Shown here: piece by piece, positions 2,332 through 17,799 of the stretch
How the letters are laid out: each line of letters opens with the position of its first letter
Position numbering within the stretch: position 1 is the stretch's first letter
Origin: Candidatus Zixiibacteriota bacterium
Lineage (GTDB): Bacteria; Zixibacteria; MSB-5A5; UBA10806; 4484-95
Direction of reading: 5' to 3'
NCBI GenBank assembly: GCA_029932605.1
Contig: JAOZPT010000049.1
Coordinates: forward strand, 1 to 18,717
Length of the DNA: 18,717 nucleotides
Made by a program: the position numbers and the translations under genes
The notes under the pieces: generated by a model
The model's input: the letters and a program-made list of their open reading frames with translations, nothing else
Database searches by the model: none
Told to the model about the DNA's origin: nothing

Positions 2332-4347
2332 ATGATGAAAACTAAGATTTTTGTCATCCTGTTATTATTAACAATATCCTGTATCAATGCACAAACAGGC
2401 TTACCTCAATCATTACCACCAGGGGACAATCCACCACCAACGGTGTTTGACCGGATCATGAATGCCGGTGACGCCGAAGATTTTGATAGCGCCGCCTATG
2501 TTATCGTCGTTGACTCTTCTATAAACACAGTGAACAAGCTGGGCGTAGCTAAAGTCAACAGTTATATCCTATATAAGGCACTCACTGAAAAGGGCTGCAA
2601 AGAGCTTTCTGTGCTCACCTGGGGCTATGAACCTATGAGTAATCATGTTGAAATCCATGAGGTAAATATAATCCGAAAAAACAAGGCGATACCAGTACCA
2701 GTGGATAGTATCCGTGACCTGCCTGCTCCACAGAGCGGTATTTACTGGAGTGACAGGATAAAGGTTCTTCAGCTTCCACGGCTTAGGGTAGGAGACGGTA
2801 TCGAAATCAAGGTTTTCCGTAAAGGATATTCCTACGCGCTTCTTGACTCAGAAGGAATTGAGCCCGATGATGAGCCCTACATTCCACCAATGCCCGGTCA
2901 GTATTTCGATATTGTGCTCTTCGAGGCCACCGTGCCAATTGTGGAAAAGAAGTATATTTTGAAATTGCCCTCAGACAAGCGCCTGCATTCCAAAATATAC
3001 AATGGTCCGATGTTCAGCAGTACAAGCTATACAACTGATACCACCATATACACATGGTGGATAAAAAACGTCCCAGCCTGGAAACCTCAGCGATATCGTC
3101 CGGATGATACTGATATTGTAACAAAGGTTGTAGTAGCTACGGTAGAAAGCTGGGAAGCGAAAAGTAGATGGTTTTTTGATATAAACGAGAAACAATTTGA
3201 GGTGACTGACGCCATTAAAACAAAAGTCGATGAGATCTTTGACAGAGCTGGTGTAACCAATGGTACCGAAGATGAAAAAGCCTTTGAGTTGGTGCACTGG
3301 GTAGCACAGAACATCCGCTACAGCGGACAGACTATGGGTAAAGGTGAGGGTTACACTCTGCATTCTGGAGCAATGATTTTTGAACAGCGAAGCGGTGTAT
3401 GCAAAGATATCGCTGGTATGCTTGTAACCATGATGCGGGCAGCCGGAATGGATTCATATGCTGCTATGACCATGGCTGGTAGCCGTATAGAGGATGTTCC
3501 AGCTGACCAATTCAACCATTGTGTCGTGGCTTTGAAGAAAAAGGGTGGCAATTTTGTTATGTATGATCCGACATGGGTTACGTTCAACAAGGATATTTGG
3601 AGCAAATATGAGACGGAACAACATTATTTAATCGGCACTCCACGGGGAGAGACACTAAGGCAGATTGCCTATAGTCCACCTGAGGAATCGCCTTTACGGG
3701 TTACAAGCACCGGCAAGATACTCCCAGATGGCACCTTTGAAGGCACTTTTGAACTCAAAGGAGATGGCGCCATGGACTCACGCCTTCGGGGTATGCTCAG
3801 GCGAAATCGCTTATCCGAGATAAACAACTACCTTGCCAGATTGCTTCATTACATCAGCGACCGCGTTGAGTTAATCAGTTATGAGCACGGTGAATTACTT
3901 GATTTTAAAAAGAGCATGTGGTGGAAAATCAGTTACAGAATCCCTGAATTCGCTTTACTTGTTGATGGTGGTTACGAATTTAAAAGTCCTATGATGCAAT
4001 TAACAAGTTACAATCTTTTCAGATACATAACCTACAATTGGCCGGAAAAACGACGGGATGACGTATTCTTTTATGCCACACAACTGCTTGATGCCAGCGA
4101 GAAAATAAAGCTTCCCAGAGGATATAAAGTGACCAAGCCAAAAGAGGTCAAGGAGATAAATGAAACATACGCCTATTTCAACGGCGAAAGCAAGATGAGC
4201 AAGAAGGATTTTGTGATAAAACAGAAAGTAATCATCAAGCGACGCCAGATTCCACCGGATGGTTACGATGGCTTTCGGAGGGTGATGAGAGAGACTAAAA
4301 AGTATGCCGAGTCTATTTTCCGTGCCGAGAAAGGGGGTACAAAGTGA
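2332..4347 (+). CDS. Exported DUF3857 + transglutaminase-like domain protein, catalytic triad intact
   Basis: Signal peptide MKTKIFVILLLLTISCINAQ; DUF3857-like LPRLRVGDGIE; WVAQNIRY; GVCKD (C357), FNHC (H396), YDPT (D412); C-terminal beta domain (IKLPRGY). AGAGGA RBS; start 2332 or 2335. Confidence 0.88.
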   Translation: MMKTKIFVILLLLTISCINAQTGLPQSLPPGDNPPPTVFDRIMNAGDAEDFDSAAYVIVVDSSINTVNKLGVAKVNSYILYKALTEKGCKELSVLTWGYEPMSNHVEIHEVNIIRKNKAIPVPVDSIRDLPAPQSGIYWSDRIKVLQLPRLRVGDGIEIKVFRKGYSYALLDSEGIEPDDEPYIPPMPGQYFDIVLFEATVPIVEKKYILKLPSDKRLHSKIYNGPMFSSTSYTTDTTIYTWWIKNVPAWKPQRYRPDDTDIVTKVVVATVESWEAKSRWFFDINEKQFEVTDAIKTKVDEIFDRAGVTNGTEDEKAFELVHWVAQNIRYSGQTMGKGEGYTLHSGAMIFEQRSGVCKDIAGMLVTMMRAAGMDSYAAMTMAGSRIEDVPADQFNHCVVALKKKGGNFVMYDPTWVTFNKDIWSKYETEQHYLIGTPRGETLRQIAYSPPEESPLRVTSTGKILPDGTFEGTFELKGDGAMDSRLRGMLRRNRLSEINNYLARLLHYISDRVELISYEHGELLDFKKSMWWKISYRIPEFALLVDGGYEFKSPMMQLTSYNLFRYITYNWPEKRRDDVFFYATQLLDASEKIKLPRGYKVTKPKEVKEINETYAYFNGESKMSKKDFVIKQKVIIKRRQIPPDGYDGFRRVMRETKKYAESIFRAEKGGTK

Positions 4348-6317
4348 AAAGCCACATGAAGAATATGATTTTAATCCTGGCTATTTCAGCCATTCTGGCA
4401 ACATGTACTCCAACAGTATGGGCACAGAAATCCATCTTCGGAATGCAGGATATCTCAGAACTTCTTAAGGTCGCCGAGAAGAGCTTTGATTTGTCAGGAG
4501 AAGATGCTGTTATATTATTCGACAGTAAAGAAGTGAATTGGTTACATAATGGAAAATTATTAACCCATATACATCGTATAATCTGGATAAATACCGAGAT
4601 CGCGAAGAGAAAATATGGTGACCATCGCATTCCATATGATGATGCCCATTGTTATTTCAAGGAGATCACCGTCCGAACCTGGCGGGACGGGCAGTGGTGG
4701 GTGACAGGTTCTACCGGCGTCGTCGAAACTCTCCCTTTCAAACTTGAAAAAGCTTATGATTATACCAATATGCGGGAGATGATGTTGCTTCATAATGGTA
4801 TCGAGCTGCCTTGTATACTTGAAATTGCATACACCATAGGGGACAAGGAACCTTTCCGAAGTGGAGCCGAAGGTCTCTGGACTTTCTCCCGTGAGGAACC
4901 TGTTATACAGTCATGGTTTACTTATGGACTGCCGGCTGGGCAGATGCCCAATTTATTTACATCGGAGGACGTCCCCGAGCCAGAAAAAGATACTGATGAG
5001 GAGCTCGGGCTGGATATCTACCGTTGGAAGATGGGACCGTTAGAGGCCATCCCACGCCCGCATACAGATGACCCCGTGGGATATATACCCCACATAATCT
5101 GGTCAACCTGGAGGAACTGGAAAGAGTATGGAAATTACCTTAATGACTCATTTAAAACTGCAACAAGACTTGATGAATCCCTTAAAAAATCTCTGGATTC
5201 TCTTCTTGTAAACGCTCGTACTATCCCTGAGAAGGCAGATCTTATAGCTGAATTTATAAATAAAAGAGTAAGATTTATCGATTATCCGGAACATTACTGG
5301 TGGCCGTCACCACGGCAAGCTTTACGCACTTATAAAACGGCTTATGGTCATCGTCTAGATCGTGCCATATTGGCTGCCGCCTTGTTTGAGGAAGCTGGAA
5401 TAAAACCATGTCCTGTATTCCTCGGGAAAAGTTATGGCCTTGTCGATGAAGGAGTACCCGCACTCTCACGGATGGTCGGAGTCGGTTTATGGGTCTCGGG
5501 GGATGACCTTGAGGCATACTACGATCCTGCCAGCGGAACGGTTTTCAATGGTCTCACCCGAATTTATAACCGAACCATCTGGTTTCCGGGCTTTGATGAC
5601 AAACCAAGTGTGCTTACCACCGCCGAAAATAAACAGAGCTATATCGAAGTCCGCATCGACTTGGCATTTGATACCCAAAAAGACTGTTTTACCGGCAACG
5701 GTTATCTTTGCGCGGACAATTGTTTTAGTCCTTATGACCGGATGGAGGGCCTTGCTCAGGAATCGAAGAAATATCTTGGGTCGGTTGTCTCCAGCCTTAT
5801 CAAGGGTGCCGAGGTTACGGGTTTCAATCCGAGTGTTTTCAATCGCTCAAGGGTAGTGATGGGATTTGAATTGGAGCTGGAAAAACCCGAGCAAGATGAA
5901 TCGGGGCGTCTTAAAATTATCGTGGGTGAACCATCGGGGGGTGTTTTTGACCATTTACCGGCTGATGTTCACCTTTATCATCAGATGCGTTCTTCCCAGG
6001 TGCAAATTCCATGCTTGATGAATCAGGTCGTAGAACTCCGTTTAGATTTGGAGGGGCTGGATGTGATATATCATGCAACCGACCAGAGTTTAGAGAATGG
6101 GGCTGGAAGTTTCTCTATTAAAACCCATCGAAAGGATAATAAAATAGTTATTACACGTAAGCTTAATCTAACAAAAACAATATATCAACCTGAAGAATGG
6201 TTGGCTTTGCGTTCTTTGCTTTTATCTGACTCTCATGAGAAAAACCAAACCCTGTTCTTAAAGACAACAAAAAACACCAAAGACAACCACATCAAGAAAG
6301 ACAATACCAAGAAATAA
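4344..6317 (+). CDS. Exported DUF3857/transglutaminase-fold paralog, catalytically degenerate
   Basis: GTGA overlap with the upstream stop (alternative ATG at 4356); signal peptide ending VWAQ; DAVILFD; GIELPCILEIAY; FINKRVRF. GHRLDRAILAAAL replaces GxCKD; YDP retained. Confidence 0.8.
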   Translation: MKSHMKNMILILAISAILATCTPTVWAQKSIFGMQDISELLKVAEKSFDLSGEDAVILFDSKEVNWLHNGKLLTHIHRIIWINTEIAKRKYGDHRIPYDDAHCYFKEITVRTWRDGQWWVTGSTGVVETLPFKLEKAYDYTNMREMMLLHNGIELPCILEIAYTIGDKEPFRSGAEGLWTFSREEPVIQSWFTYGLPAGQMPNLFTSEDVPEPEKDTDEELGLDIYRWKMGPLEAIPRPHTDDPVGYIPHIIWSTWRNWKEYGNYLNDSFKTATRLDESLKKSLDSLLVNARTIPEKADLIAEFINKRVRFIDYPEHYWWPSPRQALRTYKTAYGHRLDRAILAAALFEEAGIKPCPVFLGKSYGLVDEGVPALSRMVGVGLWVSGDDLEAYYDPASGTVFNGLTRIYNRTIWFPGFDDKPSVLTTAENKQSYIEVRIDLAFDTQKDCFTGNGYLCADNCFSPYDRMEGLAQESKKYLGSVVSSLIKGAEVTGFNPSVFNRSRVVMGFELELEKPEQDESGRLKIIVGEPSGGVFDHLPADVHLYHQMRSSQVQIPCLMNQVVELRLDLEGLDVIYHATDQSLENGAGSFSIKTHRKDNKIVITRKLNLTKTIYQPEEWLALRSLLLSDSHEKNQTLFLKTTKNTKDNHIKKDNTKK

Positions 6318-6413: not shown

Positions 6414-8729
6414 TCATCGATTTCGTTTTTTGTAAGGAACGATTGTTATTCCCCTAATTCCATGGCAAACCCTCCAGTGGGTATTTTCTCTTATGCTTCC
6501 GTTTATAAATAACCTGCTTAAAGGTATCTGTAGGTATCGTTCGACAATTCGGTGAAGTTCCCTTACGCCATTTTGCGGGTCGTATCCTTTTTCAGCCAGA
6601 AACTTCTCGGCCTCCTTTTCAATCTCGAGAGTTATTTTATATTGGCGTTTAAGGTCTTCAGAAATTTCGTCAATCATCCGTCTTAAGATTTTCCTTACAC
6701 TTTTTTTATCAAGCGGCCGGAAAACTACCACTTCATCTAATCGATTGATAAACTCCAGACGAAAATGTTTAACAAGTTCGTTGACAACAGCCGTCTTGTT
6801 TAGCCCATTTCCCCGAGATGTGAAACCTATCTTTTTATCGGGAGAGATATTACAGGTCATAATAAAAATAGCGTTTCTCGCATCAACGGTCCAACCTTTT
6901 GAATCAGTGAGTCGACCATCATCAAATATTTGAAGCAGGAGATCAAAAACCTTGGGATGAGCCTTATCTACTTCATCAAGCAGTATAACTGAATACCGTT
7001 TCGTTTTGAGTTTGCCTGTCAGTTGGCCTTCTTCATCGTAGCCTACATAACCTGGTGGAGAACCTACGAGTTTGGCTATACTATGTTCCTCCGAATATTC
7101 AGACATGTCGATTCGTATTAGACCTGATTCGTCTTTGATAAGAGATTCAGCAATCAGCTTTGCCAGTTCGGTTTTTCCAACGCCACTAGGGCCAACGAAT
7201 AAAAACACAGCTAGGGGTTTCTTTCTTTTGCTTATGTTGGCATGAGCCATAAGAAGCCGTTCACACACCTGAGAGACTGCCTCATCCTGGCCAACCAAGC
7301 CTTTTTTTATAGTCTCTTCCAGTTCTGATAAACGCGACTTCCGAACATCTTCCAAATACCCCGCAATAACTTCAAGGGGAACTTCAATCTTCTCCGAGAG
7401 AACTTTCGCAATCGCCAACTCTGTGACTTCTAAACAAGTGTCTATACATTTATTGTTATCATCCGGTGTCATCCTCTTTTTGTCAACATTGTCCATCGCT
7501 CCCAGCCCAGGTATTCGTGTCTGAGCTCCTGCTTTATCGACCAGATCGATTGCCTTATCCGGTAGGCGGTGATCCGAATCGAATTTTATAGAAAGATCAA
7601 CTGCCGCTTCTAAAGCCCTATCGTTAATCCTGGCTTTATGATGTTTTTCCATCTTTGACTTAAGCCCTTTGAGTATCTCTATTGCTTCATCACGGCTCGG
7701 TTCGTTTATAATTATTTTCTCAAACCGCCTTTCCAGGGCAGAATCTTTCTCGATAAAACGTTGATATTCTTTAGCGGTTGTAGCTCCTATACAACGGATA
7801 TCCCCCCGAGCAAGAGCCGGTTTCATAATATTTGCCGCATCCAAACTTCCTCCAGCCAACCCGGCTCCCACAACAGTGTGCAATTCATCGATAAAAATGA
7901 TCACTTCAGGACGGCTACGAACCTCTTTTATAATTTTCTCAAGACGTTCTTCGAATTCACCCCGGTATTTGGTACCACCCACCAAAGCCCCCATATTTAA
8001 TTCGATAATTTTTTGCCCATCTATAACATGCGTATCCTTACCCTCGATGATTTGCATAGCTAAGGCATGCACGGTGGCAGTTTTGCCAACGCCTGCCTCT
8101 CCCACAAGCACCGGGTTGTTTTTTGAAAGGCGGGCAAGGGTTTGGATTACTTGAAGGAGCTCTCTGCGACGTCCTATAAACGGACCAAGTTTGCCTTCTC
8201 GAGCCTCACCTGTCAGGTCTCTACCATATTTCTCAAGTAAACTTTCACCTTCATAAATACTTTCGGGTTGCTTTTTTATCTTGAGCCTTCTGGATACGCT
8301 ATCTTTTTCAAACTGTTTTCCAGCTGTGTTTTTTCGAGATGCTGTTTGGACATTGTTATTTGTATTTTTAATCCATTTATTTGCTTTTTCAAGAATTATC
8401 CTATTGTTAAAAGGCTTAACGACATAATCCGAAGCTCCCGCTTCAATAGCCTTCTTTACGGTTGCTTCGTCCGCAAGACCGGTGGTAATTATTACGGGAA
8501 TAGAAGATGTTTCTGGATTTCCCCGAAAATTACGGCATACTTCGATACCATTGATGTCGGGCAACATTATATCAAGGAAAATACAATCGTATCTGTTTTC
8601 AAGTACCTTACCTGTTGCTTCGTAGCCGGTTAGGGCGCAATCGACTTCATATTCCTTAGTGGATAAAAGACGATTCTTTATGAGCCTTGATACAACAGGT
8701 TCATCATCAACGACGAGGATTTTTTTCAA
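6414..8729 (-). CDS. Response-regulator receiver domain fused to a ClpA/ClpC-type double AAA+ ATPase (ClpP-interacting)
   Basis: TTG start with AGGAG/AGGAA RBS. REC aa 1-120 (D8 D9, D53, T83, K105). D1: GEAGVGKT, KYRGEFEERL, IIFIDE, ALERRF, LPDKAIDLVD. D2: GPSGVGKT, RIDMSEY, PPGYVGY, LLDEVDKAH, GRLTDSKG, EFINRLDE, GVREL. IGF loop at aa 634-636. No Clp N-domain and no coiled-coil M-domain. Confidence 0.92.
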   Translation of the reverse strand: MKKILVVDDEPVVSRLIKNRLLSTKEYEVDCALTGYEATGKVLENRYDCIFLDIMLPDINGIEVCRNFRGNPETSSIPVIITTGLADEATVKKAIEAGASDYVVKPFNNRIILEKANKWIKNTNNNVQTASRKNTAGKQFEKDSVSRRLKIKKQPESIYEGESLLEKYGRDLTGEAREGKLGPFIGRRRELLQVIQTLARLSKNNPVLVGEAGVGKTATVHALAMQIIEGKDTHVIDGQKIIELNMGALVGGTKYRGEFEERLEKIIKEVRSRPEVIIFIDELHTVVGAGLAGGSLDAANIMKPALARGDIRCIGATTAKEYQRFIEKDSALERRFEKIIINEPSRDEAIEILKGLKSKMEKHHKARINDRALEAAVDLSIKFDSDHRLPDKAIDLVDKAGAQTRIPGLGAMDNVDKKRMTPDDNNKCIDTCLEVTELAIAKVLSEKIEVPLEVIAGYLEDVRKSRLSELEETIKKGLVGQDEAVSQVCERLLMAHANISKRKKPLAVFLFVGPSGVGKTELAKLIAESLIKDESGLIRIDMSEYSEEHSIAKLVGSPPGYVGYDEEGQLTGKLKTKRYSVILLDEVDKAHPKVFDLLLQIFDDGRLTDSKGWTVDARNAIFIMTCNISPDKKIGFTSRGNGLNKTAVVNELVKHFRLEFINRLDEVVVFRPLDKKSVRKILRRMIDEISEDLKRQYKITLEIEKEAEKFLAEKGYDPQNGVRELHRIVERYLQIPLSRLFINGSIRENTHWRVCHGIRGITIVPYKKRNR

Positions 8730-8747
8730 CTTCCTTACTCCTTAGGG

Positions 8748-9146
8748 CTAAGCCTGACTTCCCTTTTCTATAAGTTCTTTTACCTCCAACAGCTCTTTAA
8801 TCTTCTTCAACAAATCTTTCGGTTGATAAGGTTTGGTCATATAGGCGGATGCTCTTTCTTCTATGGCTTGTTTCATATCCTTAATTGAATCCCGAGCCGT
8901 AAGCATCAATACCGGGATTTTAGACGTCTGCTCGGATGAGCGCAACCACTGGCATACAGAATGTCCATCCCCCTCGGGCATCGATATATCCAATATTATA
9001 AGGTCTGGTTTCGTTTCGATAGTTTGTTGCTTGGCCTGAGCCCCATTCTCGGCTGTTATAACCTCGTAACCTTTAGCCTTAAGTAAAACAGAGACAGTAA
9101 ACACTATTTCAGGCTCGTCATCCACTACTAAGATTTTTTTTGCCAT
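8748..9146 (-). CDS. Single-domain response regulator (receiver only)
   Basis: KKILVVDDE, PDLIILDISMP, MLTA, YMTKPY; GGAG RBS; overlaps the upstream gene by 19 bp. Confidence 0.92.
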   Translation of the reverse strand: MAKKILVVDDEPEIVFTVSVLLKAKGYEVITAENGAQAKQQTIETKPDLIILDISMPEGDGHSVCQWLRSSEQTSKIPVLMLTARDSIKDMKQAIEERASAYMTKPYQPKDLLKKIKELLEVKELIEKGSQA

Positions 9147-9613
9147 TTTTTGCTCCCCTTCATCGAAATTTTCTTCAATCTATTATACTTAAAGCAATCA
9201 TCCGGACTATGCCGAGTAGTCTTTCCATTATATTTCCTTTTATTTTTTGACATGAGTTGTTCTGCCGTAATTAATAACTCGTCATGCTTGAATGGTTTTG
9301 TAATATACCTGGAAACGCCCTCATCAAAAGCCATCTGGTAGTCCTCTCTTGCTGTGCGTGCGGTTAAAAAGATGATCGGGATTGAGCGGGTTTCCTCAAA
9401 TCTACTCAACTCCTTGGCTACATAATGTCCATCCCCTTTTGGCATTGAGACATCCAATACCAGCAGATCCGGCCTTTCTTCGATTGCTATCTGTATAGCC
9501 CTTATACCGTTCTCGGCAGTTATGACCTCGTAACCTCTTGACTTAAATAACATAGATACAACTGAGACTATCTCAGGCTCATCGTCTACTACAAGCATTT
9601 TCTTGCTCGCCAC
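9128..9613 (-). CDS. Response regulator, receiver domain with a basic C-terminal tail
   Basis: GTG start with AAGGAG RBS; MLVVDDE, PDLLVLDVSMP, FLTA, YITKPF; ~40-aa Lys/Arg-rich tail with no HTH evident. Confidence 0.9.
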   Translation of the reverse strand: MASKKMLVVDDEPEIVSVVSMLFKSRGYEVITAENGIRAIQIAIEERPDLLVLDVSMPKGDGHYVAKELSRFEETRSIPIIFLTARTAREDYQMAFDEGVSRYITKPFKHDELLITAEQLMSKNKRKYNGKTTRHSPDDCFKYNRLKKISMKGSKKWQKKS

Positions 9614-11246
9614 TTGGAATCTCCTTATCGATATTCACCCCTTCTGGTTTTAAAACGGTCATTCTGTTTTCAGCATCTTTTACCCACTGAACCGGATTCA
9701 AATTATCTGACCAGGTTGTAATACCGTAGCCTACGGTCATATTATCGAGAAGCTCCTGAGAAAAAGACTTACGTAAACGATTAATATATCCCATTGCTCC
9801 CTGTTCATCAGATTCTAATAGAATGGCAAAAGTATCCTTTTGGGGATATTGAAGCATTTTATCGCTTGACCTGTGCATTTGTTTTTCAATATTTTCCTCT
9901 AACAATCCGCTGATGGACCTTATTATGCCGGTTTCATTATATGATATGTTATTATTGCGATACTTTATTCTCATCAGAATTAAAGTAATGGTAACCCCAT
10001 TTCTCTTGGCTTTTTTAATGTTTTCTGCCAGCTGCACATAAAACTTCGCCATCGAACTGTATATATGAAGTGAAAAGGAGAATGTGCTACCCTTTCCCGA
10101 CTGGCTTTTCACCCAGATATCTCCGGCATGTAACTCAACTATTTCTTTGGCAATTGATAAACCTAAACCGGTACCTTTTGCTCCTGCTCCCGGTTCTTTT
10201 TTGACCTGACTGAATTTTTCAAAAATTATCTTCTGGTCCTCCTCGCTGATTCCTATTCCAGAATCCTTAACCTCGACAATGACATAATCACTTTCCTGTT
10301 TGACCTCTATGGTGACATACCCACCTTCTGGAGTAAATTTAAAAGCATTGCCTACGAGATTTGTAAGAACCTGTATTATCTTCTCTTTATCCGCCAATAC
10401 GGGCAAGATGTTATCCGGCGCTTCAAGATACAGTTCCTGTGATTTCGTTTGAAATTTTGGTTTAAAGTCATTTATTAATTCTAATAATAGTTCTTTGATG
10501 TTTATTTTAGAGCATTCAAGTTTCATTTTCCCGGATTCGAGTTTGGAAGTATTTAGTAAATCGTCAATTAATGCTCCTAACCTGATGCAGTTTCGTAAAA
10601 CGGATTTAAGGCATTCATGCTGGCCTTCATTGATCGGTCCCGTAATTTCATCAAACACTAAAGAGGTCTGTGATTGAATGATGGTAAGAGGGGTGCGTAA
10701 CTCGTGCGAAACAGTTGATATCAAATTCGATTTCATCTCATCAAGCGACCTGAGCTTCTGATTGGCTTTGGCCAGCCGTTTATTTTCTTTCTCAAGTTCA
10801 GAGCGAAGCCTTAACAACTCCTGATCAGCGTCATATTTCTCAATAGCTTTTGATATAACCGAGGGGAGCAGTTCATAAAACAGTTTATCCTTGACAACAT
10901 AATTGTAGGCGCCTTTTTGTAATGCTCTAACAGCTATTTTCTCATTGCCCTGGCTTGTCATAACCACAAAAGGACAGCACTCGTTAAAGTTGATCAGATC
11001 TATTCCATCGCCATCGGGAAGGCGATAATCGGTTAAAACCACCCTGTAGTTTTCATTCTTCATCAATTTGACCGCAGATTCAACCGAATCGGCAACATCC
11101 ACCGACCATGATGTTTGTTTTTCAAGTGCCGCTCGAGCAAGCAGGGCATGGTCAGGGTTATCCTCAACTATGAGGATTTTTATCTCTTCGTCGTTTCTCT
11201 TCTGAGCCTTAATCTCGATAATATCTTTTACGGTTCGATTATTCAT
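9579..11246 (-). CDS. Cytoplasmic hybrid histidine kinase: REC - HisKA - HATPase - degenerate GGDEF-like domain
   Basis: REC (ILIVEDN, LTD73, VMTS, YVVK); coiled coil; H-box SH181ELRTPL; N box NLVGNAFKF; G1 DSGIGI; F box IFEKF; G2 GTGLGL. The C-terminal ~140 aa has a GGDEF-fold pattern (RSSD-KMLQY-PQKDTFAILL...TVGYGI...DAENRM). Confidence 0.9.
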   Translation of the reverse strand: MNNRTVKDIIEIKAQKRNDEEIKILIVEDNPDHALLARAALEKQTSWSVDVADSVESAVKLMKNENYRVVLTDYRLPDGDGIDLINFNECCPFVVMTSQGNEKIAVRALQKGAYNYVVKDKLFYELLPSVISKAIEKYDADQELLRLRSELEKENKRLAKANQKLRSLDEMKSNLISTVSHELRTPLTIIQSQTSLVFDEITGPINEGQHECLKSVLRNCIRLGALIDDLLNTSKLESGKMKLECSKINIKELLLELINDFKPKFQTKSQELYLEAPDNILPVLADKEKIIQVLTNLVGNAFKFTPEGGYVTIEVKQESDYVIVEVKDSGIGISEEDQKIIFEKFSQVKKEPGAGAKGTGLGLSIAKEIVELHAGDIWVKSQSGKGSTFSFSLHIYSSMAKFYVQLAENIKKAKRNGVTITLILMRIKYRNNNISYNETGIIRSISGLLEENIEKQMHRSSDKMLQYPQKDTFAILLESDEQGAMGYINRLRKSFSQELLDNMTVGYGITTWSDNLNPVQWVKDAENRMTVLKPEGVNIDKEIPSGEQENACSRR

Positions 11247-11269: not shown

Positions 11270-11779
11270 TTAAACCTTATCCCTGACGGCCAAAACGTTA
11301 GCCGGTTTTGGCAGTTCGGATGTAATAAACCAGTATAGCTGCAGGTCTTCTATCTTGGATTTGAATTCGTTGAAATTAACCGGCTTAACTATATAACTGT
11401 TGGCACCGATGTCATACCCTTTGACGATTTCCTCGTCACGCTTAGAGGTTGTCAGCATAATGACAGGGATTCTTTTTGTCTCCGGTTTATTTTTTATTGT
11501 CTGAAGCAGCTCGAAACCATCCATACCGGGCAATTTCACATCTAATAAAATAACATCAGGATAAGGATATTTTTCTTTGTCTTTATATTCATTCTCGTTA
11601 TAAAGATAGTCATAGGCAGATTCTGCATCCATGAACTGGACTACTTTATTGACTACATGGTTTTTTTTCAGAATTTCTATTGTAAGCTCGGCATGGTCTA
11701 CATTATCCTCGACGAGCATTATAAACGCTGGTTTCGCCAACATATTAGTTCCCTGTGGCTTATTTTCTTCGATTCTCAT
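11270..11779 (-). CDS. Single-domain response regulator, Rcp1-like (phytochrome-kinase partner family)
   Basis: MLVEDNVDH, PDVILLDVKLP, IPVIMLTTS, GANSYIVKP and C-terminal YWF..SELP are typical of the Rcp1 family. ATGA overlap with the kinase stop; alternative ATG at 11743. Confidence 0.9.
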   Translation of the reverse strand: MRIEENKPQGTNMLAKPAFIMLVEDNVDHAELTIEILKKNHVVNKVVQFMDAESAYDYLYNENEYKDKEKYPYPDVILLDVKLPGMDGFELLQTIKNKPETKRIPVIMLTTSKRDEEIVKGYDIGANSYIVKPVNFNEFKSKIEDLQLYWFITSELPKPANVLAVRDKV

Positions 11780-14538
11780 AAAACGGTTTCATTTTCGGTT
11801 TCGTGAGATTTTATTTCCTTTTCTTCATCTGAATCTATAACCGGCAAAGTAAAATAAAATGTTGTTCCCTCGCCGGGTTTTGATTCGAGCCAGATTGTCC
11901 CCCCGTGTGTTTCAATAACACGTTTCACTATTGAAAGTCCAACTCCTGTGCCGCTGGTCTTATCTTTATCAAGGCGCGCTCGCTGGAAAATGTTAAAGAT
12001 TTTTTCATGGAATTTTTTGGGTATTCCTTCGCCATTGTCACGGATAAAAAATGCTCCCCTGTTATGGTCAGAGCTCTCGATACACGGATCGTATCCAACC
12101 TCAATTATCGCTCCTTCTTTTCCTGGCATATATTTAATGGCGTTATCGATCAGATTTTCGAGTGCCTCCCTTATTCTTTTCTGGCGACCGGAGATATTGG
12201 GCAATGAGTCTGAGCATAAGAGCAGGATATTCTTTGTCGATGCAGCTACCGAGAAGCTTTCAAAAATATCGTCAACGAGCTTTTTAAAATTAATCACCTG
12301 GGGCTCGTCCTCGATTCGACCGATTCGGGAAAGATCAAGCAGGTCTTTTAATAGTGCCTCCATGTTCTCAGCATTTGCGGATATCCGTTCTAAATACTTG
12401 GAGGATTTTTCATCAAGTTTTCCGGCCAGATTTTCCGCAAGCAAACCGGCAAATCCCTGCATAGAGACAATCGGAGTTTTCAAATCATGCGATATTGTAT
12501 ATATAAACTCCTCGAGCTCATGCTGGCTTGCCTCAAGTTTACGATTGGCGTTCTCCAGCTGTTCGGTATATTTAGCTATCTCCTCCTCAGCCTGTTTACG
12601 GTCACTTATATCCTCAAGCAAGCCATCATAGCGAATCAGCTTACCCTCTTCATTGCGGTGAGGCACCATAGTATGGCGAACCCAGATAACTTTTCCATCA
12701 CTGCGAACTATCCTGTGCTCAAATGGAGAAACCTCATGACCAGCCATGATCCGATCAATTAGCTTTTCCACCAAAGCCCTGTCATCCGGATAGATCATCT
12801 TACGCCATAAGTCAGGATTATTAAAATAATCTTCGGTGCTGTAGCCGGTTACCGAAAGACATCCAGTGCTATTTTTCCTGGATATGTTCTCATCGTCGCC
12901 GATCTCAACCGAATAAGTGTAAGAGGTTATGGCGGCCACTAGCCGGCGGTAACGATCCTCGGATTCTCGCAATGCTCGCACCGTTCGCTTACGGTCACTG
13001 ATGTCACGCACCGTCCCCTGAATCATTTCCGGCTTGCCATCTTTACCATAGATGACATGACTGTTTACCGAAACAGGAATATCACGCCCAGCCTTGGTCC
13101 GCAGGGTGATCTCGTAATCATTTATCGAACCCTTATGCAATAATATGTTGAGCAACTCATCTCTCTGTTTTTTGTCCGGGTATAAATCAGCCATCGAACG
13201 ACCGATGAGTTCATCGGGTTTAAACCCGGGAAGCGACAAACTTGATGGAGTAACGTTTGTAATAATCCCGTTCATATCGGTCTGGTAATAAAGATCGACG
13301 AAAGACTCAAAGAAGAACCTGTATTTTTCCTCGCTTTCTCTAAGCGCATCCTCTATCAGCTTGTTGTTGGTAATATCATCGATCACCAGAAGCAACCAAA
13401 CACTTCCCTTTTGTTCATATCCCATTTTCCTCAGGTTGACGTGGAAATAGTTATCTTTGTATTTCAGTTCAAATTCACGTCGGTCTTCGAGGACCTTTTC
13501 GCTGGTATTCATCCGTTCCTTTATCATGACAAGAATCTCATTAAGAATTTCGCCGTCAGGGTCTATATCTTCCCAAACTGAATTTGATGACACTAACTCC
13601 AATTGATTATCTCTATCCGAAAAGGATTTAATAACCACCAGTCCGCTAGGAATTGCAGATACAATATGCTCGATATATTCTTTTCTGGTGATGAGGTCGC
13701 TTATAAAACAATCCAAATCCTCGGCCATTTTATCGAAGGATTTGGCTAACTGCCCCAGTTCATCCTCTCTTTTGATGTTCAGGCGAACTTTATAATTACC
13801 CTGGCTGATCTGCTTAGTTGCTTCAGCTATTTTAAAGGCCGGCATTATAAGAAATTTAAAAACACGGTGTTGTAAAAACGAAAATACCAATAAAACCATC
13901 AAACCGAAAACCAATGAATATTTCACAAAGCTTGCCATTTTACTATCAAAGCCATTCAACGATAAAAGAAGAACCATATAACCGATGGAAAAGGTATTTG
14001 CCTCGTTCCGTAATTTCATTCCACTCTTAGAAAATGAATGTTCCTCGGGAGATGACATAGATAATTCGAGTGGTTCCATAATAAGCAAGCTGGTGTTTCC
14101 ATTAATCCTTACAGATATACCCTGAATACGAGATTTATTCTTTACATAAGGTAAGATATTTTTATCCGGACCATCGCCAATAATTAAAAGAGGAGTATAA
14201 TGTTTATCTAATAATGCCAAACCATGAACGTCCTTGATGAGGTAGGTTTTGGAGAAGAAAGATGATAATTTCTGTTTGATTTCTGGTTGACCAAGAACAT
14301 CGGATGTAATTCCGGAATCCATTTCACCATCGGGGTTGATTTTTTCGGTGATATTTAAGGCAATCATATTTAACAAATTATGCCCTTCTTCCTCATAAGA
14401 TTGTATAAGCTTGTCCCTTGACAGCTTATAATTGAACATCAGTATGGCGGAAATGATTATAAGAGAAATAAAACCGCCGAGAATGTTCGTTTTCAATAAA
14501 ACGGATTTCTTGATTTTTTCTTTTATCTTTTTAATCAT
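11776..14538 (-). CDS. Membrane sensor histidine kinase: TM - periplasmic domain - TM - HAMP - PAS x2-3 - HisKA - HATPase (Cph1/BphP-like kinase core)
   Basis: Two hydrophobic helices; HAMP (REDELGQLAKSFDKMA); PAS/PAC ends DIT, DIS, DIS; H-box EEFIYTISH684DLKTP; NLIDNAIKY; DNGEGI; IFNIFQR; GTGVGL. Confidence 0.93.
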   Translation of the reverse strand: MIKKIKEKIKKSVLLKTNILGGFISLIIISAILMFNYKLSRDKLIQSYEEEGHNLLNMIALNITEKINPDGEMDSGITSDVLGQPEIKQKLSSFFSKTYLIKDVHGLALLDKHYTPLLIIGDGPDKNILPYVKNKSRIQGISVRINGNTSLLIMEPLELSMSSPEEHSFSKSGMKLRNEANTFSIGYMVLLLSLNGFDSKMASFVKYSLVFGLMVLLVFSFLQHRVFKFLIMPAFKIAEATKQISQGNYKVRLNIKREDELGQLAKSFDKMAEDLDCFISDLITRKEYIEHIVSAIPSGLVVIKSFSDRDNQLELVSSNSVWEDIDPDGEILNEILVMIKERMNTSEKVLEDRREFELKYKDNYFHVNLRKMGYEQKGSVWLLLVIDDITNNKLIEDALRESEEKYRFFFESFVDLYYQTDMNGIITNVTPSSLSLPGFKPDELIGRSMADLYPDKKQRDELLNILLHKGSINDYEITLRTKAGRDIPVSVNSHVIYGKDGKPEMIQGTVRDISDRKRTVRALRESEDRYRRLVAAITSYTYSVEIGDDENISRKNSTGCLSVTGYSTEDYFNNPDLWRKMIYPDDRALVEKLIDRIMAGHEVSPFEHRIVRSDGKVIWVRHTMVPHRNEEGKLIRYDGLLEDISDRKQAEEEIAKYTEQLENANRKLEASQHELEEFIYTISHDLKTPIVSMQGFAGLLAENLAGKLDEKSSKYLERISANAENMEALLKDLLDLSRIGRIEDEPQVINFKKLVDDIFESFSVAASTKNILLLCSDSLPNISGRQKRIREALENLIDNAIKYMPGKEGAIIEVGYDPCIESSDHNRGAFFIRDNGEGIPKKFHEKIFNIFQRARLDKDKTSGTGVGLSIVKRVIETHGGTIWLESKPGEGTTFYFTLPVIDSDEEKEIKSHETENETVL

Positions 14539-17140: not shown

Positions 17141-17584
17141 TCAGCCGGATTTATCCCTCAGTTTCTTAAGGAACTTCAGATCCTGCAAATCTTTTTCTCT
17201 GCCAGCGGCCTTCTTCATTATTATTAAATCATCCAATGAGGCAAAATAGGTCTTCACGCCCTCAATCTCACCCTTTTTCTTGTTTTTCCAGACCTCCTCA
17301 AACGATATACCGGTAACAAATGGATGAATATCTGTTTCGAGGGCGTATTGTCTGATGAGTATTTTTTTCTTAAGCATATCCTCAACTGCTAAATCAGAAA
17401 CATCATAGCCGAAATCGGATAGTGCCTTAAGAGTTTTTTGCGCATTATCTCTATGGGGTTCGATGAATATGTCTATATCGATAGTGGCCCGTGAATAGCC
17501 ATAGAAAGGGAAAGCGTAGGCTCCGATTATGACATAGCGAACTTTATGTTCGTTTAATGATTTCAAAAGGTTTTTTATGTCCAT
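17141..17584 (-). CDS. Nucleotidyltransferase (DUF6036 / AbiEii-like), putative TA component
   Basis: YVIIGAYA...SRATIDIDIF (G[G/A].A and T.D.D motifs); C-terminal LIIMKKAAGREKDLQD. ATG at 17584 is preferred over TTG 17590. Confidence 0.82.
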   Translation of the reverse strand: MDIKNLLKSLNEHKVRYVIIGAYAFPFYGYSRATIDIDIFIEPHRDNAQKTLKALSDFGYDVSDLAVEDMLKKKILIRQYALETDIHPFVTGISFEEVWKNKKKGEIEGVKTYFASLDDLIIMKKAAGREKDLQDLKFLKKLRDKSG

Positions 17585-17729
17585 TATCAATCAACATCTT
17601 TAATATTGTTCGGCTGGCATTTATCATCATCCTGTAACGCTGGTCAACGGTGAGCGAGGCCTGGAACTCAAGCTCAAGCTCCAGCTCATCGACTTCATCA
17701 TCCGGGCCTATTTTGTAGATTGGAGGCAT
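17544..17729 (-). CDS. Small protein overlapping the nucleotidyltransferase start, putative TA partner
   Basis: ATG 17729 with GAGG RBS gives 61 aa (the ORF track starts at GTG 17771). It contains the SLTVDQR helical motif and overlaps the NTase by 41 bp. Confidence 0.65.
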   Translation of the reverse strand: MPPIYKIGPDDEVDELELELEFQASLTVDQRYRMMINASRTILKMLIDNGHKKPFEIIKRT

Positions 17730-17751
17730 TATTCGGTTTTCCTCGTTTACA

Positions 17752-17768
17752 GTTTTAACAGTTAAAAC
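17752..17768. promoter_or_regulatory. Perfect 8-1-8 palindrome, candidate operator of the TA-like pair
   Basis: GTTTTAAC-A-GTTAAAAC, 23-39 bp upstream of ATG 17729. Confidence 0.35.
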
Positions 17769-17799
17769 CACAGGGGTTTTGACCTACTTTGATTTACAA

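Follow-up and report, generated by a model that had tools for sequence, protein, structure and literature searches.

Genomic locus and domain architecture

The gene under study lies on the minus strand of the window, i.e. the whole stretch of 18,717 nt of DNA that was analysed, and joins a response regulator receiver to a Clp motor in a single protein, here termed REC-Clp. Its start codon is TTG, located 18 bases past the stop codon of the upstream gene. The following features were assigned:

6414..8729, minus strand: REC-Clp gene, 771 aa, one unbroken ORF
8730..8743, minus strand: Shine-Dalgarno-like AAGGAG / AAGGAAG, directly 5' of the REC-Clp start
8385..8720, minus strand: receiver domain, aa 4-115 (Pfam PF00072 Response_reg, E 1.4e-26)
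8571-8573, minus strand: codon of D53, the receiver phosphoacceptor
8244..8366, minus strand: linker, aa 122-162, 41 aa, polar and basic, predicted to be disordered from about aa 131
7506..8243, minus strand: AAA+ module D1 and lid, aa 163-408 (Walker A/B, KYRG pore loop, ERRF)
7431..7505, minus strand: variable loop of 25 aa at the position of the ClpB/ClpC coiled-coil M-domain, predicted to be disordered (pLDDT <50 at 410-431)
6720..7334, minus strand: AAA+ module D2, aa 466-670 (Walker A/B, GYVG pore loop, Arg finger R663)
6822..6830, minus strand: IGF motif, aa 634-636, predicted ClpP-docking loop, invariant in 4/4 fusions
6468..6713, minus strand: D2-small domain, aa 673-754, with sensor-2 R723

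Pfam placed the motor domains at residues 207-340 (AAA), 345-408 (AAA_lid_9), 504-667 (AAA_2) and 673-754 (ClpB_D2-small), which confirmed the order proposed in the first-pass annotation (Response_reg, AAA, AAA_lid_9, AAA_2 and ClpB_D2-small, without Clp_N). That annotation had described an uninterrupted 771-aa frame with an intact receiver, a polar linker and two complete AAA+ modules; Pfam and motif positions agree, and the Walker motifs, pore loops and ERRF that it had named as intact were all found in place, with Walker A at 210 and 513, Walker B at 277 (IIFIDE) and 582 (ILLDE), pore loops at 254 (KYRG) and 560 (GYVG) and ERRF at 333. Clp_N was absent among the Pfam families on REC-Clp (25 of 27 families listed), and PF02861 (Clp_N) was absent from the precomputed domain lists of all four clusters of fusion proteins described below. 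A Lon domain was likewise absent among the families listed for REC-Clp, and the detected domains fill the protein. By its two AAA+ modules with intact motifs and its D2-small domain, REC-Clp fits a class I Hsp100/Clp ATPase, and the motifs suggest that it would form a hexamer with ATP-driven unfolding activity.

A first structure model built from 5 sequences was poor (pLDDT 44). The second model (32 rows) gave a confident two-module motor with a mean pLDDT of 74 and a disordered linker and 25-aa loop; its receiver was poorly modelled (pLDDT 35-63), which leaves the placement of the receiver relative to the motor undefined. Fold matches of the model were ClpC, ClpB and ClpA structures, and no solved structure matched both the receiver and the Clp parts among the best 60 of 159 sequences.

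REC-Clp is the last gene of a cluster of six close or overlapping same-strand genes containing two kinases and five receivers, in the order sensor kinase, receiver, receiver-kinase, two receivers and REC-Clp. The preceding genes were assigned by Pfam:

11776..14538, minus strand: sensor histidine kinase of HAMP-PAS-PAS architecture, 920 aa, with intact H-box; it opens the cluster
11270..11779, minus strand: single-domain receiver, 169 aa, Asp intact
9579..11246, minus strand: REC-HisKA-HATPase hybrid kinase with a degenerate GGDEF-like tail, 555 aa, H-box intact
9128..9613, minus strand: single-domain receiver, 161 aa, Asp intact, overlapping both neighbours
8748..9146, minus strand: single-domain receiver, 132 aa, Asp intact

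Pfam detected no DNA-binding domain in the six genes; apart from the kinases, the Clp motor is the only output of the cluster that is intact. Promoter and terminator scans gave counts matching those of shuffled sequences (23 vs 23.5 and 9 vs 7.0).

Authenticity of the fusion

The first-pass annotation had considered a misassembly at the junction of receiver and motor (8240-8400). Contigs of other assemblies run across this junction, and at 95% likeness the listings for 4 runs contained neither joints nor indels. Seven runs, drawn from six studies of DNA from vents and marine sediments, contained at least half of the sampled words, and one of these runs may be the source of this DNA. One near-identical contig of run X2, which may be that source, covers the entire REC-Clp gene and part of the operon; a contig of run X3, from the same study as the possible source, covers 8206-8642 from the receiver into D1. 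A further contig (L004) is 97% identical over residues 1-190, with the frame open to residue 414 and five of the six cluster genes in order. The metagenome scan yielded one same-species contig among 7 loci, and five proteins on record are near-identical to REC-Clp over the full length. Among the 17 runs listed as containing the sequence, none was RNA, which has no bearing on expression.

The strongest evidence came from homologues: the same receiver-Clp architecture recurs in three diverged clusters, at 77, 75 and 68% identity, which refutes a misassembly. An assembly chimera might be suspected in a metagenome-derived contig, and contigs rather than raw reads were examined, but with the junction spanned elsewhere and the same fusion kept in these homologues it was rejected as exceedingly improbable.

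Placement within the Clp family

REC-Clp scored below the NCBIfam cut-offs for ClpA (630 against 993, TIGR02639) and ClpB (674 against 1232), and those of ClpV, ClpG and ClpK were likewise missed. The spacing from PDKA to the second Walker A motif is 124 aa, compared with 100-101 aa in ClpA-like, 157 aa in ClpC-like and 220-222 aa in ClpB proteins; by this spacing and the disordered 25-aa loop, REC-Clp has no coiled-coil M-domain. A quick tree was built from 68 cores, among them 44 collection hits and 18 loci, hand-chosen, with ClpA-like rows identified by spacing and without Actinomycetota ClpI. In this tree the four fusions group together as a single clade (SH-aLRT 100), which lies within proteins of about 790 aa bearing a diverged Clp_N (support 98 and 100) and is separate from ClpA, ClpB and ClpC; the lineage of the window has the longest branch of the four. 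The tree thus places the fusions inside an accessory, Clp_N-bearing Clp family distinct from ClpA/B/C, and a single fusion event with loss of Clp_N would be the simplest history.

The term ClpA-type used in the first-pass annotation is therefore appropriate for the architecture only. REC-Clp resembles ClpA (PDB 1KSF, 6W1Z) in having two AAA+ modules, no coiled-coil M-domain and an IGF/L-type loop of similar total length, but it has no Clp_N, its score is below the ClpA cut-off, its core is only about 38-43% identical and it branches separately. ClpC with MecA or McsA-McsB provides the best fold matches, a ClpP motif and phosphorylation-linked control in the wider family; REC-Clp differs in lacking both Clp_N and the M-domain that serves as resting-state element, and the short coiled-coil M-domain of ClpC, ClpE and ClpI is absent from it. 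ClpB has a long M-domain and no IGF/LGF motif, and REC-Clp is the opposite in both respects. It shares with ClpE, ClpG/ClpK, ClpI and ClpV the character of an accessory paralogue in which the N-domain sets specificity (PMC13125188, PMC10149685, excerpts); none of these is described with a receiver in the excerpts, and the NCBIfam scores of REC-Clp lie far below cut-off.

Conservation of the receiver and the linker

The receiver of REC-Clp contains the residue set of a phosphorylatable response regulator (DD, D, T/S, aromatic switch and KP). The intact receiver noted at first annotation (D8/D9, D53, T83, K105) was corroborated, and D8, D9, D53, T83, Y102, K105 and P106 are invariant in 4/4 fusion clusters. 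Identity among the clusters is 69-95% in the receiver, 79-95% in D1, 73-91% in D2 and 18-79% in the linker, which in the three homologues is 14 aa longer than in REC-Clp. The receiver is hence conserved about as well as D2 while the linker drifts, although such patterns are weak because only four clusters exist, two of them 91-95% alike. The fusion is real and probably under selection.

Within the fusions, alpha4 (9 of 12 positions invariant) and beta5 with its loop (9 of 11) are better kept than alpha1 (4 of 14), whereas in 37 generic receivers alpha4 and alpha1 are equally variable (0.26 each). The FATGUY (FxSGY) motif is absent at beta4 of the receiver, where IITTGL is found. This motif marks intermediary receivers of the CckA/CpdR type, which take part in passive phosphotransfer, although some intermediary receivers lack it (PMC9981736, excerpt). 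By our own alignment, one of the two salt bridges of OmpR-type dimers is kept (D101/K115; bridges according to the excerpt of PMC9981736). The favoured reading of this receiver is that phosphorylation of Asp53 gates a ClpP-coupled unfoldase in cis, which on the sequence evidence has in our estimate an even chance of being correct.

Alternatively, the receiver might be a targeting module that docks on the cognate kinase or pairs with receivers of the cluster, so that a constitutively active unfoldase would degrade or remodel its own pathway and reset signalling. A flexible linker of 41-55 aa speaks against rigid allostery, Hsp100 N-domains select substrates (PMC13125188, excerpt), DegU~P and PhoP are examples of regulators degraded by Clp proteases (PMC12471899, excerpt), and the 555-aa kinase has no sensor or membrane domain detectable by Pfam. 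Since the kinase-facing alpha1 is the least conserved part and the output face is among the most conserved, we regard such targeting as unlikely.

No donor of the receiver was found, the best stand-alone or other-context receivers being at most 50% identical among the matches listed. The adjacent 132-aa receiver is 41% identical to that of REC-Clp, which does not support a local duplication. Because alpha1 of the REC-Clp receiver is unlike that of both adjacent receivers, the cognate kinase is not obvious. In the lineage of the window, E221 is replaced by His (E221H), a position occupied by Glu in 115/115 family members and in the three other fusions. Twelve strain variants were found, six synonymous and six non-synonymous, none of them at conserved sites; all 3 variants in the receiver or linker are non-synonymous.

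ClpP-docking motif and other Clp genes of the genome

The sequence KKIGF at residues 632-636, overlooked at first annotation, contains an IGF motif. IGF/LGF-type motifs serve for ClpP docking in ClpA, ClpC, ClpE and ClpX (PMC10149685, PMC13125188, excerpts). The geometry in REC-Clp is atypical: the motif follows sensor 1 at an offset of 6 residues (ClpC, 11; ClpA-like proteins, about 10), and its loop comprises 28 aa (ClpC, 37 aa; ClpA-like proteins, 30-31 aa). Among the 115 members of the accessory family, 28 could not be parsed, and [ILVMF]GF was found in 77 of the 87 parsed members. The conserved motif suggests that REC-Clp could dock on ClpP.

The short and shifted loop would also suit a phosphorylation-regulated remodeller that acts without ClpP and disassembles complexes like ClpB or the LGF-less ClpIb. 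Consistent with this, 10/87 parsed family members have no ClpP motif, no clpP gene is present in the window and, among ClpI paralogues, some have the motif and others lack it (PMC10149685, excerpt). The IGF, however, is invariant in all four fusions inside an otherwise variable loop and the M-domain of ClpB is missing, and a ClpP-free role is in our view rather improbable.

The genome (99.96% complete) encodes ClpC, ClpB and a tig-clpP-clpX cluster on other contigs, as judged from translations and, for clpP, by Pfam. As ClpC, ClpB, ClpX and ClpP are already present, REC-Clp is an extra paralogue. The genome's own ClpC has 821 aa and is preceded by two ORFs which we take to be McsA and McsB; one run of genes (G000:C11:1492-7573) holds lolC/lolD-like, mcsA/mcsB-like and clpC genes, labelled from translations.

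Neighbourhoods and N-terminal domains of the accessory Clp family

Members of the accessory family were found in two other phyla (2/251 and 10/351 genomes), and the own phylum yielded a single, more distant member (1/285 genomes). Among 13 family loci, five adjoin Ser/Thr kinases (three with an FHA-kinase and PP2C), six adjoin a receiver or His-kinase gene (three of them close kin), 10 have either, two have neither and one contig was too short, counts that are descriptive and are to be read against the 38 receiver-bearing frames in the own 2.5 Mb genome. At three loci (L121, L122, L128) a receiver gene lies directly upstream of the accessory Clp gene on the same strand, an arrangement that plausibly represents the pre-fusion state. 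In the L122 assembly the accessory Clp is frameshifted in D2 (L122:8615-11009).

The N-terminal region of the family also accommodates other domains. A class III nucleotide-cyclase-like domain lies between Clp_N and D1 in P0013 and is likewise listed for P0008 and P0010; these three proteins form the sister group of the receiver fusions with weak support (89). In P0057 such a domain stands instead of Clp_N, and more distant family members carry PP2C or CHAT. Clp ATPases with PP2C, CHAT protease, phage Mu F-like and beta-helix additions were also encountered (P0146, P0150, P0166, P0193, P0142, P0176).

Two further arrangements were observed. In two phyla, a cassette of FHA-kinase, PP2C phosphatase and accessory Clp is accompanied by a nearby TPR Ser/Thr kinase (L107:8666-16549, L108:3214-9944, L120:5707-14371). 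At L125, L126 and L127, a hybrid kinase (HisKA-HATPase-REC-Hpt) directly follows the accessory Clp, and in L126 this pair adjoins an enoyl-CoA hydratase gene, a combination that to us is reminiscent of RpfC/RpfF.

Distribution of the fusion

In a collection of 5.8 billion proteins, the fusion forms four clusters at 90%, which were recovered both with a receiver-plus-D1 query (best 120 of 7993 matches) and with the receiver (best 120 of 164). Among 1.84 billion 50%-representatives, a single entry of the best 150 combined both domains; a generic fusion of receiver and Clp ought to reach that score, although Clp_N-bearing representatives could mask fusions clustered with them. Only members of the four clusters combined both domains among 511 proteins fetched, and no fragments or stand-alone copies of the fusion were found among the best 120 of 189 shorter proteins. 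The fusion was absent from 60 relatives checked and from 284 other genomes of the own phylum (0/284, three candidates scored per genome); searches of similar kind elsewhere caught members of the accessory family at 51-65%. The 301 genomes around G285 and the 301 around G286 yielded no member of that family at E<=1e-175, and no plasmid match of at least 60% identity was present among 2476 records with a match. The receiver-Clp fusion is extremely rare, and this rarity limits its biological reach.

Such rarity would be expected of a tolerated fusion between a stand-alone receiver and a downstream Clp gene, in which the receiver would be a phosphate sink or passenger and the lineage may be relaxing. 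The receivers directly upstream at the three loci named above suggest that such a fusion is easy, and E221H and the non-synonymous receiver variants of the window lineage fit this explanation. The fusion has nevertheless been kept over 23-32% divergence with the receiver, but not the linker, conserved like D2, and the native N-domain was lost rather than merely preceded; a passive receiver is accordingly judged to be quite improbable.

Among 102 loci scanned (best 150 of 429 matches, 141 genomes), none joined a receiver to a single AAA_2/D2-small module in one frame. Three ESM Atlas clusters were noted, with 67, 91 and 130 members, whose proteins have 484-510 aa and come mostly from Acidobacteriota (scores 0.89-0.94); at least one joins a receiver to a single AAA module, and others show AAA_2 or ClpB_D2-small. 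These clusters possibly represent a receiver-ClpX-like or receiver-D2 family larger than that of REC-Clp.

Known receiver-coupled motors and proposed mechanism

NtrC-family enhancer-binding proteins carry a receiver upstream of an AAA+ ring and use it to control assembly or activity. These proteins have a single AAA+ module and a DNA-binding HTH, whereas REC-Clp has two Clp modules with pore loops and IGF and no HTH. Two-component control of Clp proteolysis is also exerted by the separate adaptors CpdR and RssB, whose phosphorylation state tunes ClpXP (PMC9981736, PMC7226468, excerpts); they act in trans via the zinc-binding N-domain of ClpX, whereas in REC-Clp the receiver is the N-domain. 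The closest precedent in cis is DVU3303, a receiver-Lon protein of Desulfovibrio vulgaris for which Rajeev et al. proposed a requirement for phosphorylation (2011, PMC3333781, excerpt). Here, too, a receiver is wired to an ATP-dependent protease, but Lon has its own peptidase and one AAA+ ring, whereas REC-Clp, a class I Hsp100 with two rings, would depend on ClpP. The receiver-Lon architecture occurs widely (an Atlas cluster has 144 members), as opposed to the four clusters of the receiver-Clp fusion; no receiver was found near any of 10 Lon loci from 5 genomes within the fetched stretch.

The novelty that the first-pass annotation had suggested holds in part. No receiver-Hsp100 fusion was found in the open literature (subscription papers, Galperin's census and supplements being outside this scope), and none appears in the excerpts of a 2025 review and an archaeal census, but the concept of a receiver-in-cis protease is in print for Lon (PMC3333781, excerpt). 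Among class I Clp ATPases the fusion thus seems not to have been described before, but it is a variant of an idea already published as a proposal.

N- and M-domains are known control points of Hsp100 proteins (PMC5699869, PMC8056383, PMC13125188, excerpts). In ClpC, contacts of the M-domain keep the motor inactive and adaptors activate it (PMC5699869, excerpt), and a flexibly tethered N-domain can sterically inhibit ClpB by hindering its M-domain (PMC8056383, excerpt), an element that REC-Clp does not possess. As Clp_N and the M-domain are both gone, the receiver above the pore is the remaining candidate for control and would replace the function of these two elements in ClpC. In the favoured gating reading, a kinase of the cluster would likely phosphorylate Asp53, phospho-Asp53 would switch the admission or recruitment of substrates by the receivers at the entry face, and the substrate would probably next be threaded by the motor into ClpP. 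Our guess is that phosphorylation is activating, the direction of the switch being a guess, and that it would work by re-pairing of receivers or by steric release across the flexible linker and not through a rigid interface.

Gating is supported by the invariant phosphoacceptor set, the D2-like conservation of the receiver and the retention of alpha4/beta5 over alpha1, and by the missing FATGUY motif together with the presence of Y102 (PMC9981736, excerpt). It is further supported by IGF in 4/4 fusions, the tig-clpP-clpX cluster in the genome, the two-component cluster devoid of a DNA-binding domain, the family loci beside kinase or receiver genes and the receiver-Lon precedent DVU3303. It is weakened by the short, shifted IGF loop, E221H, the long branch and the non-synonymous receiver/linker variants, and by the finding that RssB phosphorylation alters delivery only about threefold (PMC7226468, excerpt). 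A kinase signal would likely control protein destruction directly via REC-Clp, an idea in print for Lon only within the searchable papers.

More broadly, and more tentatively than for gating itself, REC-Clp may be a response regulator with a whole Hsp100 as its output, in which His-Asp phosphorylation would switch ClpP proteolysis in cis and without an adaptor. It would have arisen once from a little-described accessory Clp family in which the N-terminal position has repeatedly been filled by domains of signalling proteins (receiver, class III cyclase-like, PP2C, CHAT), trading Ser/Thr-kinase-linked for two-component control, and with receiver-Lon and the possible receiver-single-ring Clp family it might belong to a recurrent class of phospho-gated proteolysis motors. 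With separate adaptors such as CpdR and RssB, the own role of phosphorylation is hard to isolate. The presence of receiver and unfoldase in one soluble protein makes Asp-phosphorylation gating of an Hsp100 motor testable in vitro and, if true, would offer a natural template for signal-switched degradation.

Other features of the window

Two overlapping DUF3857 genes at 2332-6317 (plus strand) are convergent with REC-Clp, one with a transglutaminase core and one with DUF3858. A DUF3857-transglutaminase neighbour of Clp shared with locus L119 was treated as coincidence (21% identity). Within the gene of the 169-aa receiver, about 45 bases (11511-11560) match unrelated contigs of very high depth at 80% likeness in three runs, probably a chance likeness to an abundant repeat. 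At 17141-17771 (minus strand), a 75-aa ORF without Pfam match overlaps a 149-aa DUF6036 nucleotidyltransferase, an arrangement resembling a minimal-nucleotidyltransferase two-gene module.
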